Part shown: positions 776 to 5,788 of the stretch, piece after piece
How the letters are laid out: every line of letters begins with the position of its first letter
Numbering within the stretch: the first letter of the stretch is position 1
Assembly: GCF_003334385.1 (NCBI RefSeq)
Contig: NZ_QOWN01000073.1
Source of the DNA: Escherichia coli
GTDB lineage: Bacteria; Pseudomonadota; Gammaproteobacteria; Enterobacterales; Enterobacteriaceae
Length of the DNA stretch: 7,140 nucleotides
Strand: one strand, 5' to 3'
Position numbers and translations under genes: made by a program
The notes under the pieces: generated by a model
Told to the model about the DNA's origin: nothing
Database searches by the model: none
Seen by the model: only the letters and a program-made list of their open reading frames with translations

Positions 776-982
776 ATGAATACCCCAGTTTCACTGATGG
801 ATGACCAGATGGTCGACATGTCGTTTATCACTCAGCTGACCGGCCTGACCGATAAATGGTTTTACAAGCTCATCAAGGATGGTGCCTTTCCTGCCCCCAT
901 CAAACTGGGCCGTAGCTCCCGATGGCTGAAAAGTGAAGTGGAAGCCTGGTTGCAGGCACGTATTACACAGTCCCGTCCGTAA
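776..982 (+). CDS. alpA: AlpA-family prophage regulatory protein (small HTH DNA-binding protein, 68 aa)
   Basis: ATG at 776 preceded by GGAGGA at 762-767 (8-nt spacer); stop TAA 980-982. Translation MNTPVSLMDDQMVDMSFITQLTGLTDKWFYKLIKDGAFPAPIKLGRSSRWLKSEVEAWLQARITQSRP has the size and single helix-turn-helix layout of AlpA/Vis-type regulators. The track ORF 722..982 adds 18 N-terminal codons with no RBS, so the internal ATG is preferred. Family call is from recall, not a search. Confidence 0.7.
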   Translation: MNTPVSLMDDQMVDMSFITQLTGLTDKWFYKLIKDGAFPAPIKLGRSSRWLKSEVEAWLQARITQSRP

Positions 983-1067: not shown

Positions 1068-1640
1068 ATGCAAAAACTTGAAAACCGGTGTGAGCTGCTG
1101 CTCATCCAGCATCAGAAATGGATGACAAACGTGACGAGGCTTATCGTCGCTCATGGAATGGGGGCTCCGCATCTTCATGGTTATCACCGCCTGACCCTGG
1201 CCCACTTTTTTCTGCCAGAAAAAGGCACCATCATCTCAGTGGCACCACAGGGACTCTATCAGGTCGTCAACCCGGGAACACCACCGTTCATTCCTGCCAT
1301 TCAGGAAGGGTTAATGACCAGCATTCAGACCCATGAAATCATGCTGCTTACACATTTTAATCTGGGCGGCGTTTTACTCAGTGAGCTACATCGTCTGGGT
1401 GAAAACCGGCTGGCAAACAGGCTGAACAGCCTGCTCCGGCGTTTCAACGATCGTGATCTCTACCACACGCTGATATGGCTGTGCTGGTATGATCTGATGT
1501 GTGCTCACTCCATGCAGCCCTGGACTGAAGAGTTAAAGCATAAATCACATGCAGAGCTTGAAAACTGGGCTGTGGCGCGCAAACGGGAAAAGCGCGAGCT
1601 GGAACTGATGATTGACGAGTACCTGTTATACGCCTGTTGA
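1068..1640 (+). CDS. hypothetical protein (190 aa), function unknown; probably co-transcribed with the AlpA-like gene
   Basis: ATG at 1068 preceded by AAGGAGA at 1054-1060 (7-nt spacer); stop TGA 1638-1640. The track ORF starts at a TTG (1041) upstream of the RBS, so the ATG is preferred. Only 85 bp separates it from the alpA stop, same strand. I do not recognise the protein; it may belong to the small proteins often found beside alpA in such islands, but that is unverified. Confidence 0.6.
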   Translation: MQKLENRCELLLIQHQKWMTNVTRLIVAHGMGAPHLHGYHRLTLAHFFLPEKGTIISVAPQGLYQVVNPGTPPFIPAIQEGLMTSIQTHEIMLLTHFNLGGVLLSELHRLGENRLANRLNSLLRRFNDRDLYHTLIWLCWYDLMCAHSMQPWTEELKHKSHAELENWAVARKREKRELELMIDEYLLYAC

Positions 1641-1760: not shown

Positions 1761-3251
1761 TTATAAGCCAAAGGATTGCTCATGCCATCTTATCAGTTTC
1801 TGGCTGTAGCACGCATTCAGTTCAGGCAGCGTGATATTGTTTATTTCGGAAAGCAGGACATAGGTGGTTTTTCCTTCCTGCACGACAGAGAGCCTGAGTT
1901 GAGATGCAAGAATGTTCAGCAGGACGTTCAGCTTTTTCCTGTTCCGGAACCGGCCCGGGCCACACTGGAGAATATAATTTTTCCTGACACGGGGCGGGCA
2001 TTCTCCGCGGCACTCCTCAATGAGCCAGTCGAACAGCTCCTCGGCGTCCTTCTGCTGCAGTTCAGATTCATCAGGTAACGCAAATAATTTTTTATATTCA
2101 TCTGTGTACCACGAACTTATTACGACAGCAGACGTCATGATATCGGCAGAGATTTTCCCTTCACCCTGACTGAAATACTGCAATAACGCAGCAATTCTCG
2201 CAATGTTTTCTGTTTTTTTTGAAACATGCCCCCGAAACTGGCTTAAGGGTCCGGAAGGAGACAAATCCTGCTCCAGAACATTATAGTGATCAATAAATAT
2301 TTTTTGCGCTTCAGGAGAAAAATGCAGACAATAACGTTCATCCTTACTGGATTTTTCAATACTGCCTCTGGCCAGTTCCATTAATCGTTCATGAAATGCC
2401 GTTAATGATCCTCCCGGGGTCACAGCTCCGTTAATAAAGCGTTTCCCCTGCGTGGTGGCAGGTTTACTGATTAGACAACGGGCAAGAAAACCACTGTCCC
2501 TGGCAACAGAACCTTTTCGCTCCATATATCGGTCAAAAAGACCGGGTTGTACCATGAGGGATAATGTCATTCTAGCATTTTCAATCATCTGTTCGGGTTC
2601 ATTCTTTCTGTCCACCGACAATACGGAGCCATCCCACATTTTGTTAATAAAAGGCAGCTCAGACAGGGTATACCCATCAAATATTATACCGGCTTCATCA
2701 GACATGATACCCACTGAACGCCACTGACCACAAAGCTGATCTTTAATTGCTGCTGTCGTGGCATCATTAAAAATGAATTTATATCTTACAGGTTTTTCCC
2801 CTCTGTTTTTCTGAAGCGCTTCCAGTTGTCTGAGCGTTTCTGACTCATCCGCGCCTTTGCGGAGTTCTTTATTCAGTTTTGACAACAATGCTTTTTTCTG
2901 CGCCTTTAAAAGCTCTTCCTTATTTTTCCATATCGTCAGTTCATTTTTGTGTCTGGAATATAACAGCATCTCCTGCTGGTACAGGGGCTCCATTAATAAT
3001 TTGTCCACTGCGGTTTTTCGTTCTCCGGACTCAGCAAGCGTCAGTAAGAAAAGAGAAACCGGCCCCCGCAGTGTATTCAGTCTGCAGACATCAATCAGAT
3101 TCTGGCAGACAAGTGAAACAGCGCCCAGGGCAGATGCTGCCACAAGCCCCAGGGGAGCCTGCGTGATTTGCTGAGCTTCAATAACGGCATCACGAATGAG
3201 TGGAGGCAGCGAGCTCAGGGGAAACTCATCAGGATACTGAAAGTATGGCAT
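1761..3251 (-). CDS. P-loop NTPase-like protein, tentatively DUF3987 / YfjI-like family (~496 aa)
   Basis: Long uninterrupted minus-strand ORF in AT-rich DNA, where long chance ORFs are unlikely. Preferred start is ATG at 3251-3249 with GAGGT 5 nt upstream; the track ORF starts at GTG 3269. Stop TAA (complement of 1761-1763). Protein contains a degenerate Walker A-like LAESGERKT and a Walker B-like GIMSDEAG, plus an N-terminal PLSSLPPLIRDAVIEAQQITQAPLGLVAASALGAVSLVCQ stretch that I recall as typical of DUF3987/YfjI-like proteins. Family assignment is recall-based and unverified. Confidence 0.55.
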   Translation of the reverse strand: MPYFQYPDEFPLSSLPPLIRDAVIEAQQITQAPLGLVAASALGAVSLVCQNLIDVCRLNTLRGPVSLFLLTLAESGERKTAVDKLLMEPLYQQEMLLYSRHKNELTIWKNKEELLKAQKKALLSKLNKELRKGADESETLRQLEALQKNRGEKPVRYKFIFNDATTAAIKDQLCGQWRSVGIMSDEAGIIFDGYTLSELPFINKMWDGSVLSVDRKNEPEQMIENARMTLSLMVQPGLFDRYMERKGSVARDSGFLARCLISKPATTQGKRFINGAVTPGGSLTAFHERLMELARGSIEKSSKDERYCLHFSPEAQKIFIDHYNVLEQDLSPSGPLSQFRGHVSKKTENIARIAALLQYFSQGEGKISADIMTSAVVISSWYTDEYKKLFALPDESELQQKDAEELFDWLIEECRGECPPRVRKNYILQCGPGRFRNRKKLNVLLNILASQLRLSVVQEGKTTYVLLSEINNITLPELNACYSQKLIRWHEQSFGL

Positions 3252-3744
3252 AATGACCTCACAACACACAGAACATAAAGTACCGCAACTATTGCTACTA
3301 ATAGCAAAAATAGCAGCAGAATCAATACAGGATAAAAATTTCTGTCGATTTTCAGATTAAATAATAACCATTCGGTATTTTGTCGCTAAAGAATGTTAGA
3401 ATGAATCTGTGCGTCTACGGGCGCTCTCCGGAACACACATGTTGATTAATTTTCACACAACAACGTACCAGCAAAAAGCATCATCCAGGGTATTGCAGGT
3501 ACGGGTTTCCTGCCGGGAATAAACATAAACAGTTTCCCCGGAGTAACGCTTTCAGAAAACTGCCCTCCTGAAGAAGAATAAAATAAAGAAGATGACAGTT
3601 CCTGCACTGAATGCTGAGTACAATATTCTATGGACAGGATGACATTTTTATAAATAACAAAAACCATTTAATACTGATACATCAATAAAATACTTCCTCC
3701 CTGCTGACACAGATAAAATGCAACATTTTTTCTTCAAATACTTC

Positions 3745-3753
3745 TGTATAATC
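3745..3753 (+). promoter_or_regulatory. candidate sigma70 extended -10 element (TGTATAAT) inside the AT-rich region
   Basis: tgTATAAT at 3745-3752 on the + strand with no good -35. AT-rich DNA produces many such matches, so this is weak. Confidence 0.2.
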
Positions 3754-4084
3754 GCCAGCCAATGATGAGAATGGATTAAAATAACACTTCTTCGACAAAC
3801 ACAAAAACCAGCCTTCATTTTCACATCATCATCCAGTTTTAATTAAACCCTGACGAGCGACAGTATTTCAGTTCAGGAATTAAAAGCCAGCTATTACTCA
3901 GTAAAAACACCACCAACTAATAATATCTCAGCAGATATTTCCTGACCAGGATGACACATTTATTAAAGATTTTTAACAGGACACTTCACATTACTGAACG
4001 CTATTCCGACAGTATCACTACACAAATAAAAAAGGGAACTGGATAAATATTCATGCCGGAAGAATGGTGTAACAAAAGCATTTA

Positions 4085-4097
4085 ATCATTACGTGCG
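4085..4097. repeat. 13-bp direct repeat, copy 1 (atcattacgtgcg)
   Basis: Exact 13-mer atcattacgtgcg at 4085-4097, repeated at 4209-4221; the two copies flank the 30-bp palindrome. Confidence 0.6.
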
Positions 4098-4110
4098 TAT
4101 TCCTCTCTAT

Positions 4111-4140
4111 TCGATCACGGTTTGGCCAAACCGTGATCGA
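4111..4140. repeat. perfect 30-bp palindrome (15+15, no spacer) carrying two GATC sites
   Basis: tcgatcacggtttgg|ccaaaccgtgatcga is exactly self-complementary; GATC at 4113-4116 and 4135-4138; central TGGCCA. Read directly from the sequence. Confidence 0.9.
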
Positions 4141-4208
4141 TTCAGATGCCATTTTGCAAGTACGCATGACCCGGAAGGGAAACACTTAACAACATGGTAT
4201 CAACAGAT

Positions 4209-4221
4209 ATCATTACGTGCG
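4209..4221. repeat. 13-bp direct repeat, copy 2 (atcattacgtgcg)
   Basis: Exact second copy of the 13-mer at 4085-4097. Confidence 0.6.
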
Positions 4222-4527
4222 CACTCTTATAAAAATACACAGCAGAAGCAAGATAACTCTAAACGTAAATTTAATATCTCCCACTGACTGCCCCGACAAT
4301 ATACTGAAAAATACTCACCTCAGTAAACATAAACACACCTGATAATCAGGCTGCAAGATGAATATTTTTCTCCTTTACGGAGTAATCAGCCTGCTGTTTA
4401 ACAATAACCGCGTATTTTCATGGAAGGATATCACCCAATAACGGATAACTCCTGCCCTCCTTCATGTTAATACGCAACATCCCCATCGATTCCAAACAAT
4501 TTCAGACAGATATTATCTCCGTGAATC

Positions 4528-4567
4528 CCCCGCCACCTTTCCGGTGTGCGGGGTTTTGTCTTTTTTC
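4528..4567 (+). terminator. intrinsic (Rho-independent) terminator-like hairpin plus T-tract immediately upstream of the GTPase start codon
   Basis: Stem ccccgccacc (4528-4537) pairs with ggtgtgcgggg (4543-4553) as 10 bp with one bulged T, loop tttcc, followed by ttttgtctttttt (4554-4567). GTPase ATG is at 4583. Confidence 0.5.
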
Positions 4568-4582
4568 ACCGGGAATACATGT

Positions 4583-5455
4583 ATGAATCCGTCTGATGCC
4601 ATTGAGGCAATTGAAAAACCACTTTCTTCCCTGCCTTACTCGCTTTCCCGTCACATCCTGGAACATCTGCGCAAACTCACCAGTCACGAACCCGTGATTG
4701 GCATTATGGGTAAAAGCGGGGCCGGTAAATCCTCACTCTGTAATGCGCTGTTTCAGGGGGAGGTCACCCCGGTCAGTGATGTTCACGCCGGCACCCGGGA
4801 AGTGCGGCGCTTCCGTCTGAGTGGTCACGGTCACAGCATGGTTATCACTGACCTGCCCGGGGTGGGCGAGAGCCGGGACAGGGATGCAGAGTATGAAGCC
4901 CTGTACCGTGACATTCTGCCTGAACTGGACCTGGTGCTGTGGCTGATTAAAGCCGATGACCGGGCCCTGTCTGTGGATGAGTATTTCTGGCGACACATCC
5001 TGCAGTGCGGACATCAGCAGGTGCTGTTTGTGGTGACACAGGCCGACAAAACGGAGCCCTGCCATGAATGGGATATGGCCGGCATTCAGCCCTCTCCCGC
5101 ACAGGCACAGAACATTCGCGAAAAAACGGAGGCGGTATTCCGTCTGTTCCGGCCTGTACATCCGGTTGTGGCCGTATCGGCCCGCACCGGCTGGGAACTG
5201 GATACGCTGGTCAGTGCGCTCATGACAGCGCTTCCCGACCATGCCGCCAGTCCCCTGATGACCCGCCTGCAGGACGAGCTGCGCACGGAATCTGTCCGCG
5301 CTCAGGCCCGTGAGCAGTTTACCGGTGCGGTGGACCGGATATTTGACACAGCGGAGAGCGTCTGTGTTGCCTCTGTTGCACGCACGGTTCTGCGTGCCGT
5401 CCGTGACACAGTGGTCTCTGTTGCCCGCGCGGTATGGAACTGGATCTTCTTCTGA
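4583..5455 (+). CDS. yeeP: YeeP/YkfA/YfjP-family GTPase (50S ribosome-binding GTPase-like, 290 aa), apparently intact
   Basis: Translation MNPSDAIEAIEKPLSSLPYSLSRHILEHLRKLTSHEPVIGIMGKSGAGKSSLCNALFQGEV... contains G1/Walker A GKSGAGKSS, G3 DLPG and G4-like TQADK. I recognise the sequence as the island GTPase found directly upstream of flu. The track ORF 4544..5455 begins inside the upstream hairpin; ATG at 4583 is the more plausible start. Stop TGA 5453-5455. Confidence 0.88.
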   Translation: MNPSDAIEAIEKPLSSLPYSLSRHILEHLRKLTSHEPVIGIMGKSGAGKSSLCNALFQGEVTPVSDVHAGTREVRRFRLSGHGHSMVITDLPGVGESRDRDAEYEALYRDILPELDLVLWLIKADDRALSVDEYFWRHILQCGHQQVLFVVTQADKTEPCHEWDMAGIQPSPAQAQNIREKTEAVFRLFRPVHPVVAVSARTGWELDTLVSALMTALPDHAASPLMTRLQDELRTESVRAQAREQFTGAVDRIFDTAESVCVASVARTVLRAVRDTVVSVARAVWNWIFF

Positions 5456-5539: not shown

Positions 5540-5610
5540 AGCTTGATAATAGAATAAAACGATCGATACCTATTTTATCGATCGTTAATATCGATCGCTA
5601 TACTAATAAT
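5540..5610 (+). promoter_or_regulatory. agn43 (flu) promoter / phase-variation switch: OxyR-binding region with three Dam GATC sites
   Basis: Three CGATCG motifs with GATC at 5561-5564, 5580-5583 and 5593-5596 (spacings 19 and 13 bp), ~200 bp upstream of the flu ATG. This matches the known Dam/OxyR epigenetic switch of agn43. Exact -35/-10 and TSS cannot be fixed from sequence alone; TTGATA at 5543-5548 is a candidate -35. Confidence 0.8.
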
Positions 5611-5760
5611 AACTCCTGTTAGCAACGTGCGCAGATACACACAGACATGAGATTCAGGGAACAACAGAGCCACACGTCAGAAACTTCCGTCAGCCGGACC
5701 TCCGGCACTGTAACCCTTTACCTGCCGGTATCCACATCTGTGGATACCGGCTTTTTTATT
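5567..5760 (+). ncRNA. isrC: agn43 leader RNA / IsrC-like small RNA (prematurely terminated flu 5' leader); boundaries approximate
   Basis: The 3' end is defined by the intrinsic terminator at 5724-5760; the 5' end is assumed to be the flu TSS near the GATC cluster. From memory, an sRNA (IsrC) is annotated in the yeeP-flu intergenic region of E. coli K-12; coordinates here are inferred, not verified. Confidence 0.4.
5724..5760 (+). terminator. intrinsic terminator in the flu leader, ~30 nt upstream of the flu start codon
   Basis: Perfect 12-bp stem gccggtatccac (5724-5735) / gtggataccggc (5740-5751), loop atct, followed by ttttttatt (5752-5760). Confidence 0.75.
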
Positions 5761-5788
5761 CACCCTCACTCTGATTAAGGAAATGCTG

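Follow-up and report, generated by a model that had tools for sequence, protein, structure and literature searches.

What is an apparent transcription terminator doing directly in front of a gene, where any transcript that is to express the gene has to cross it? The question is raised by a stretch of Escherichia coli DNA of 7,140 nucleotides (nt), taken from contig NZ_QOWN01000073.1 of assembly GCF_003334385.1, which we call the window and to which coordinates refer unless another sequence is named. It is a segment of a genomic island, with 100% identity to strain G1/2 and 99.3% to the pheV-side island of CFT073. On its plus strand it carries a gene for a 290-residue GTPase of the YeeP/YkfA/YfjP family (4583-5455), immediately preceded by a GC-rich hairpin and a run of T residues. 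A first-pass annotation, made from the letters of the sequence, had pointed to this hairpin and suggested conditional control of the GTPase, which is plausible. The hairpin proves to be one part of a control cassette of ~95 bases (4490-4582) that recurs before the GTPase genes of this family. On balance, and with a confidence only a little better than even, we regard the hairpin and T-run as a promoter-proximal intrinsic terminator in the 5' leader of the GTPase's own transcript.

The stem-loop occupies 4528-4553 on the plus strand, as do the other elements of the cassette, and reads CCCCGCCACC/TTTCC/GGTG(T)GCGGGG: ten base pairs, eight of them G-C, with one bulged T and a loop of 5 nt. The 13-nt T-run TTTTGTCTTTTTT (4554-4566) begins at the first base past the stem. 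The RNA of 4523-4566 adopts this hairpin alone, at -19.5 kcal/mol, compared with a mean of -9.3 (sd 2.35) for dinucleotide shuffles (z = -4.35; none of 200 shuffles folds as well). The terminator-like structure reported in the first-pass annotation is therefore real, and it has what is expected of an intrinsic terminator, namely a GC-rich stem of 5-14 bp, a loop of 3-8 nt, above-chance stability and an abutting U-run. A simple terminator scanner listed just the inner five pairs, because of the bulge. Some details of the earlier description need correction. The T-run ends 16 nt before the ATG at 4583 (the start given by the NCBI Prokaryotic Genome Annotation Pipeline, PGAP, in both CFT073 and strain G1/2), and not 15 nt as claimed; nor does it take the place of a ribosome-binding site, as a weak Shine-Dalgarno (SD)-like GGGAA sits separately at 4571-4575, 7 nt before the ATG. 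The accompanying remark that no promoter fits between hairpin and ATG holds, and expression of the GTPase must consequently traverse the hairpin.

Comparison with related genes shows that this arrangement is a property of the family. With an alignment of four paralogues as query, one genome per species was scanned; the 80 loci obtained come from ~25 enterobacterial genera and encode proteins of 49-97% identity. Upstream stretches of 130 nt were then compared as 86 leaders, 79 of them unique sequences from which a position profile was made. All 86 leaders carry the promoter block described below, and nearly all consist, in this order, of a block of ~38 nt, a GC-rich hairpin of variable sequence, a T-run, an SD site and the ATG. 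Two classes can be recognized. In class A, that of the window, the block reads aTTCCAAATAATTTCAGAYAGATATTATCTCnGTGAAT, and in class B, which includes yfjP and ykfA of E. coli K-12, it reads ...TTCAGATATATATCATyyyyCTGAAC. The hairpin follows the predicted start of transcription after 5 nt in class A, the window included, and after 10-16 nt in class B. Leader length is fixed as well, at 57-62 nt between the predicted +1 and the ATG for class A and at 67-71 nt for class B. The SD-like element of the window aligns with CTGAGA or GAGG in class A and with AGAGGAG in class B. The leader segment is abundant, with 9,532 matches in 4,259 of 5,426 complete genomes.

What is kept in these leaders is the pairing rather than the sequence of the stem. 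The 86 homologous leaders hold 78 distinct hairpin sequences, all at the same position; class A and outlier leaders use unrelated stems (CCCCGCCACC, CCCCCGAAGCC, GACTGACT, GGCAGC and others). In K-12, yfjP (in CP4-57) has the stem GGCAGAACC-tcgc-GGTTCTGCC and ykfA (in CP4-6) the stem GGCGGAATC-tcac-GATTCTACC, each followed by a T-run and each preceded by TTGAAA-15 nt-TATCAT and TTCAGA...TCTGAA; the layout is the same and the stems are different. Across class B, 94.7% of the cells of the stem alignment are paired, a figure that falls to 31-53% if the 3' side is shifted by one to three columns; eight of the 11 pairs have changes on both sides, that is, compensatory ones, and the covariation score of 0.376 (0.182 in shuffles) is reached by none of 500 shuffles. 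Twelve diverse leaders each fold to one hairpin, with z from -2.4 to -6.1. The intrinsic terminator is a known kind of element; for the cassette family, its geometry and its phage-type promoter there is no description in Rfam or in the papers searched. No Rfam family matched the leader, whether in a scan of the window (E up to 1) or in one of 20 related loci (gathering threshold).

The second conserved part of the cassette is the block upstream of the hairpin (4490-4525, or -34 to +3 relative to the predicted start). It contains a -10 hexamer, TATTAT (4511-4516), and 7 nt after this a G (4523) that we predict to be the start of transcription, as T-1, G+1 and A+2 are conserved and the 5' hairpins of the phage copies discussed below start at the equivalent G. 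Among the 86 leaders the -10-like hexamer is TATCAT in 43, TATTAT in 42 and TTTCAT in one (TATYAT in 85 of 86). Across the 79 unique sequences A-13, T-12, T-10, A-8 and T-7 are invariant, A-11 is present in 99%, and T-1, G+1 and A+2 are conserved at 95-99%. A -35-like hexamer, TTCCAA (4490-4495, aligned at -33 to -28), lies 15 bp upstream of the -10; it is the commonest variant, the K-12 paralogues having TTGAAA, and T-32 (95%), A-29 (100%) and A-28 (97%) are conserved in it, as is A-34 just upstream. The spacing of 15 bp is universal in the family. The core pattern occurs once in the window, where 0.02 occurrences are expected; each of the 72 loci with an exact match likewise has a single copy, the stretches of 20 kb from CP4-57 and 14 kb from CP4-6 among them.

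We take this block to be a promoter: its conserved positions match those of a -10 element and of a start 7 nt further on, the distance usual for sigma-70, and nothing else upstream of the ATG is conserved, so that the promoter of the module has to be in the block. E. coli sigma-70 holoenzyme has moreover been reported to bind in vitro the spacers that hold the two K-12 island copies; in that study RpoD-holoenzyme SELEX (systematic evolution of ligands by exponential enrichment) gave peaks in the ykfA and yfjPQ spacers, with the promoter listed as TTGAAA-15-TATCAT (Shimada 2014; PMC3946193). The block has two further features. The spacer holds the element TTCAGA (4501-4506, -22 to -17), which is more than 90% conserved. 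A sigma-70 spacer needs no conserved sequence. TTCAGA is also one end of a 25-bp imperfect dyad, TTCAGAcAGATA-T-TATCTccGTGAA (4501-4525, -22 to +3), which is centred on the -10 and reads TTCAGA-N13-TCTGAA in class B; it overlaps both the -10 and the predicted start and could be an operator. Consensus sites for RfaH (ops), CRP, Fur, LexA, Lrp and IHF were compared with the block informally, by eye, and none fits.

The same promoter type is found in jumbo phages. An exact-pattern scan of IMG/VR returned three GTPase cassettes with the block, and in Erwinia jumbo phage genomes of 230-241 kb the block was present at four different sites. One such phage, vB_EamM_Huxley (NC_031127.1; 240,761 bp, 51% G+C, with phiKZ-like split RNA polymerase genes), has 2, 9, 20 and 36 copies of TTCAGAYAKATATYAT at zero, one, two and three mismatches, against 0, 0, 0.6 and 8.3 in shuffles. 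Of the 20 sites with up to two mismatches, 17 have an annotated coding-sequence start 24-73 nt downstream on the same strand. The flanks of these 17, outside the search pattern, agree with the island profile at A-34 (13), T-32 (15), A-29 (17), T-23 (15), C-6 (16), G-2 (14), T-1 (15), G+1 (17) and A+2 (15), and because this agreement lies outside the pattern searched for, the island and phage sets represent one promoter type. According to a review, every jumbo phage that encodes RNA polymerase has a conserved AT-rich motif centred at -10 before its early operons and, where transcription has been profiled, this motif is the early-promoter consensus, attributed to the virion RNA polymerase (PMC7598289; see also PMC8244752). 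Huxley has just such an AT-rich motif, some 10 nt long, centred at -10 and repeated many times before phage operons. Its motif, yTCAGATAGATATTAYCTAGGTGAG, is present in ~20 copies (L097-L101; for example at 59449, 101445, 114564 and 238289), many with a 5' hairpin at the conserved G, and is palindromic (TCAnnTAGATA-T-TATCTAnnTGA); it is presumably the early-promoter consensus of the phage. Island and jumbo-phage copies thus have in common a ~38-bp motif (A-34, T-32, A-29, TTCAGAYAGATATTATCT, T-1 G+1 A+2) that is AT-rich, centred at -10, placed 24-73 nt before open reading frames (ORFs) and followed at once by a hairpin. They differ in that the phage copies have weak 5' stem-loops and no T-runs, whereas the island copy precedes a chromosomal GTPase gene that has no phage homologue: the sequenced phages searched gave nothing closer than generic G-domain matches. 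A core of the class B type, TTCAGATATATATCAT, followed by GTGAA or ATGAA and a hairpin, was also seen in uncultivated viral contigs of 87-323 kb (L129-L131, L132, L140, L117 and L135), with three copies in one contig of 98 kb; megablast of these contigs against sequenced phages gave no match.

A number of observations weigh against a terminator behind an active promoter. The -35 region is not that of a sigma-70 promoter, which would have a TTGACA-like hexamer at 17 +/- 1 bp: TTCCAA matches at three of six positions and stands at 15 bp, and a scanner that requires a spacer of 16-18 bp does not call the site. Published transcript data from K-12 are unhelpful to the prediction. The profile of transcription start sites of Kim 2012 has no start at the predicted position for ykfA, -68, and only weak ones at -265 (four reads) and -506 (five reads). 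In the Term-seq tables of Adams 2021, 3' ends are missing from the leaders of yfjP and ykfA; since IsrC, the leader RNA of flu, has none there either, expression may simply be too low. A search of Yan 2018 gave no hits. Support for the class A stem from covariation is weak on the available alignment (78.9% paired), which, made with MAFFT and a covariance model, is out of register where bulges differ; we have for this reason relied on the folds of single sequences. The inner helix of class A does swap A-U, U-A and C-G pairs. K-12 cannot inform on class A in any case, since its yeeP (L009 6787-7212) is a pseudogene whose 5' truncation has removed the whole leader cassette. Given this and the K-12 record, the start site and termination remain predictions. 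Finally, the hairpins of the phage copies begin at +1 or +2, have a mean of -4.7 kcal/mol and 39% G+C, and are followed by 2.35 T in the next 8 nt; such a hairpin is a 5' stem-loop and no terminator, so that the island hairpin may also, or instead, stabilize the mRNA. A separate observation concerns the other strand of the ykfA leader: among the plus-strand entries of the Ettwiller Cappable-seq data there are antisense starts in or just upstream of it, at U00096.2 positions 268186, 268258 and 268350, of which 268350 is the strongest of those listed (score 28) and 268258 lies 6 nt from the predicted sense start.

The phage comparison is the origin of the alternative that we take most seriously, albeit as a rather unlikely one. 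The hairpin would then be a 5'-terminal stem-loop that protects the message from RppH and RNase E, the U-rich stretch would be a landing pad for the ribosome (through S1), and there would be little or no termination. Besides the position of the phage hairpins at +1 or +2 without T-runs, many class A leaders speak for it, in which a 5' GAAUC can pair with a GAUUU past the stem and so bury the 5' end. Against it, the island hairpins are far stronger than those of the phages (mean -16.9 kcal/mol), have a G+C-rich base and abut a T-run of 8-13 nt that is conserved across genera, and a stabilizer has no need of an abutting U-run; the island version has in this sense added the features of an intrinsic terminator. 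In class B, furthermore, 10-16 unpaired nt precede the stem, which would leave the 5' end without protection.

If the hairpin is a terminator, it has to be asked whose transcript it ends. It has to be considered whether the hairpin is a boundary terminator, or insulator, that stops transcription coming from upstream, ancestrally from a co-directional gene for a protein of ~300 aa, with the block as a protein-binding site and no active promoter. In 27 of ~85 loci a homologous co-directional ORF does end at the block's edge, leaving 84-155 nt to the ATG, and the weak ykfA starts of Kim 2012 lie far upstream with none at -68. The best sigma-70-like match of the window by the scanner (4186-4213, TTAACA-16-TATCAT, ten of 12 positions) is likewise upstream. 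We nevertheless consider this reading improbable. In many other loci the upstream neighbour is on the opposite strand or 200-700 nt away, and the cassette is equally conserved there; in the AT-rich gap of the window, tblastn detected no trace of that ancestral gene (best E = 0.27). In the aligned leaders conservation sets in sharply at -34, and E. coli matches from other types of island begin at 4476, 4489 or 4494 of the window, so an insulator would leave the module with no conserved promoter. The invariant positions fit a -10 and start, and the same motif precedes phage ORFs. A terminator serving the upstream genes would not stay tied to the downstream gene across such differing contexts. 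The cassette thus belongs to the GTPase gene and not to the genes upstream, and the hairpin, which spans +6 to +31 of the transcript predicted for the GTPase itself, is not the leftover terminator of an upstream gene.

The co-directional upstream proteins themselves (L004 2094-3011, L003 1861-3024, L051 1470-2402 and 24 other loci) are mostly of ~290-400 aa; the family has no match in Pfam, NCBIfam or PADLOC, and by eye its C-terminus may resemble a ribbon-helix-helix.

The first-pass annotation had offered two other explanations, namely that a transcript from the AT-rich region (3270-4475) reaches the GTPase by read-through or antitermination, or that the hairpin masks the translation start. 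The promoter-like site at 4186-4213, inside this AT-rich stretch, and the lack of room for a promoter past the T-run would suit the former. A transcript from there is however not needed: the AT-rich region is peculiar to this type of island, similarity to other islands beginning only at 4476-4494, which leaves it outside the conserved module, and the promoter block (4490-4525) lies directly upstream of the stem. Masking does not fare better. In longer folds (4440-4625 and 4523-4625) the terminator hairpin persists, it pairs with neither the SD nor the AUG, and there is no significant structure that involves either (z = -1.2 and -1.4). We therefore regard both explanations as very improbable. 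In class B, pairing of the 5' tail with the SD does occur in some minimum-free-energy folds and is absent from those of yfjP and ykfA, and it was not retained as a candidate.

An equally remote proposal is that the main product is a trans-acting small RNA (sRNA) of ~40-55 nt, the GTPase being expressed incidentally; we give this a very slight chance. The single-stranded 5' tail of 10-16 nt in class B, a terminator hairpin and a U-tail do make up the minimal layout of an Hfq-type sRNA, and IsrC nearby, itself a leader, carries an sRNA annotation. But class A, with the window, has only 5 free nt, the sequence of the 5' tail is not conserved beyond GAA, no Rfam family covers it and the Term-seq tables list no RNA 3' ends at the K-12 copies.

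Returning to a terminator in the GTPase's own leader, the predicted course of events would be as follows. Host RNA polymerase would start at G4523 from the promoter TTCCAA-15 bp-TATTAT and transcribe five unpaired nt, the stem-loop (+6 to +31), the U-run (+32 to +44), the weak SD-like site and the AUG (+61). Most starts would release an RNA of 35-45 nt in the U-run; only read-through transcripts would carry the GTPase message, the module being otherwise nearly silent, and in this island they would next meet the separately controlled leader of flu. How might read-through be regulated? An attenuator or riboswitch, with a competing fold or a leader peptide, does not suit a leader with 5 nt (class A) or 10-16 nt (class B) upstream of the stem. 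Five nt ahead of the stem rule out a competing RNA fold of the riboswitch or leader-peptide type, so that control would have to come from a change in the polymerase, from direct action on the stem or, by way of the dyad that overlaps the -10 and start, at initiation.

Two known systems offer themselves for comparison. The first is in the window itself, 1 kb downstream: the IsrC/IS102 leader RNA of flu (5559-5764, plus strand; Rfam RF00124, 256.4 bits, E = 9e-50), whose 3' end is a second hairpin, at 5724-5751, with its T-run. The first-pass annotation had identified this hairpin correctly and had drawn a parallel between the two leaders. The parallel holds in that promoter, IsrC leader, terminator and flu follow one another as do the elements before the GTPase, each leader being non-coding and ending in a strong intrinsic terminator just before the ribosome-binding site. 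A passage in one paper (PMC5389530, citing Wallecha 2014) describes flu expression as controlled by IsrC antitermination. The likeness does not extend to the sequence or to Rfam, where the GTPase leader has no model; the RF00124 match is confined to 5559-5764, with nothing at 4480-4582 even at E up to 1. The IsrC leader is ~200 nt long, with several helices and Dam/OxyR phase-variable initiation, whereas that of the GTPase is 60 nt long, with its terminator 5 nt past the predicted start.

The second comparison is with the Q and AlpA units (lambda PR'-tR'; Pseudomonas aeruginosa PalpB-tB), which, like the cassette, combine a conserved spacer element with a terminator before the first ORF of an array of genes in a mobile element. 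At the promoters served by AlpA in P. aeruginosa, the binding element lies in the spacer from -35 to -10, a pause element resembling a -10 covers -1 to +5, and an intrinsic terminator closely precedes the first ORF (PMC7969949, PMC9371919). The cassette has a conserved spacer element, TTCAGA, as a possible counterpart of the binding element, and the terminator downstream. A -10-like pause element is absent from the initially transcribed region (+1 to +10, GAATCCCCCG), the nearest candidate, GTGAAT (4521-4526), being without an A at position 2. The island does encode a protein of the AlpA family, in a helix-turn-helix gene of 68 aa (776-982, plus strand; Pfam Phage_AlpA PF05930, E = 6.3e-9). 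P. aeruginosa AlpA has an N-terminal ring domain and helix-turn-helix contact residues at 128-142, and the island protein has the Phage_AlpA/HTH_17 domain only; since 68 aa cannot hold the ring domain, it was rejected as an antiterminator of the AlpA type. Strong terminator-like hairpins with T-runs were also seen between co-directional genes of the K-12 arrays, just before the next ribosome-binding site (yfjP-yfjQ, L007 13602-13629; ykfA-yafZ, L008 10067-10046; and L008 7252-7230), and the CP4-57 region (L007) has 19 terminator-like sites against 7.1 +/- 2.6 expected. Such intergenic hairpins would suit a processive mechanism of antitermination.

The remainder of the window is briefly as follows. 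The AlpA-family gene is followed by a hypothetical gene (1068-1640, plus strand) and a YfjI-family gene (1761-3251, minus strand), and from 3252 to the cassette and GTPase gene there is an AT-rich stretch of about 1.2-1.33 kb that has no annotated genes. Within this gap lies a perfect 30-bp palindrome (4111-4140, TCGATCACGGTTTGG/CCAAACCGTGATCGA) with two GATC sites; copies of an 18-nt direct repeat, ATCATTACGTGCG..., lie on either side of it, at 4085 and 4209. The GTPase, which PGAP names 'GTPase family protein', shares 51-59% identity with YfjP, YkfA and a third paralogue; its matches in NCBIfam are at the level of the G domain. The last gene of the window, 3' of the IsrC leader, is flu/agn43. 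IsrC and flu here occupy the place of the usual gene after a class A GTPase, which encodes 229-238 aa, begins ~212 nt downstream (for example L006 4229-4942) and matches models of WYL-domain regulators (PADLOC PDLC01457, E = 2.5e-14), yet is named SpoIIID by PGAP. In strain B379 (L003, 4196 onward) a dynamin-family gene comes after the yeeP-type GTPase, which is frameshifted there.

The promoter type also suggests a more specific idea, to which we assign a small chance: that the cassette is a phage-responsive switch, its promoter copied from the early type of large virulent phages. In uninfected cells host polymerase would start weakly and stop at the leader terminator, and during infection a phage polymerase, or a host polymerase modified by the phage, would start strongly and read through, as a phage polymerase would routinely transcribe promoter-adjacent hairpins on its own genome; the GTPase module would in this way be switched on as a defence or counter-measure. 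The promoter variants AGATATTAT and ATATATCAT are both present in islands and in phage contigs. As to the module itself, the G domain of the GTPase is distantly like LeoBC of Eleos (a weak, partial match in PADLOC, with a weak match to LeoA too), and a WYL regulator follows it in many loci.

Few pieces of E. coli genomic islands are as common as the YeeP/YkfA/YfjP GTPase module, and the cassette before it, conserved from Escherichia to Photorhabdus and Arsenophonus, gives it a defined control point. The promoter, the pairing of the stem and the spacing are better conserved than the GTPase protein itself (~50% amino-acid identity). A promoter type common to jumbo phages ties a chromosomal island gene to the transcription signals of phages. 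In this island the adjacent yeeP and flu would each be gated by a leader terminator of their own, predicted in the case of yeeP. If that terminator works as predicted, the module would be silent by design, and attention would turn to the signal that opens it.

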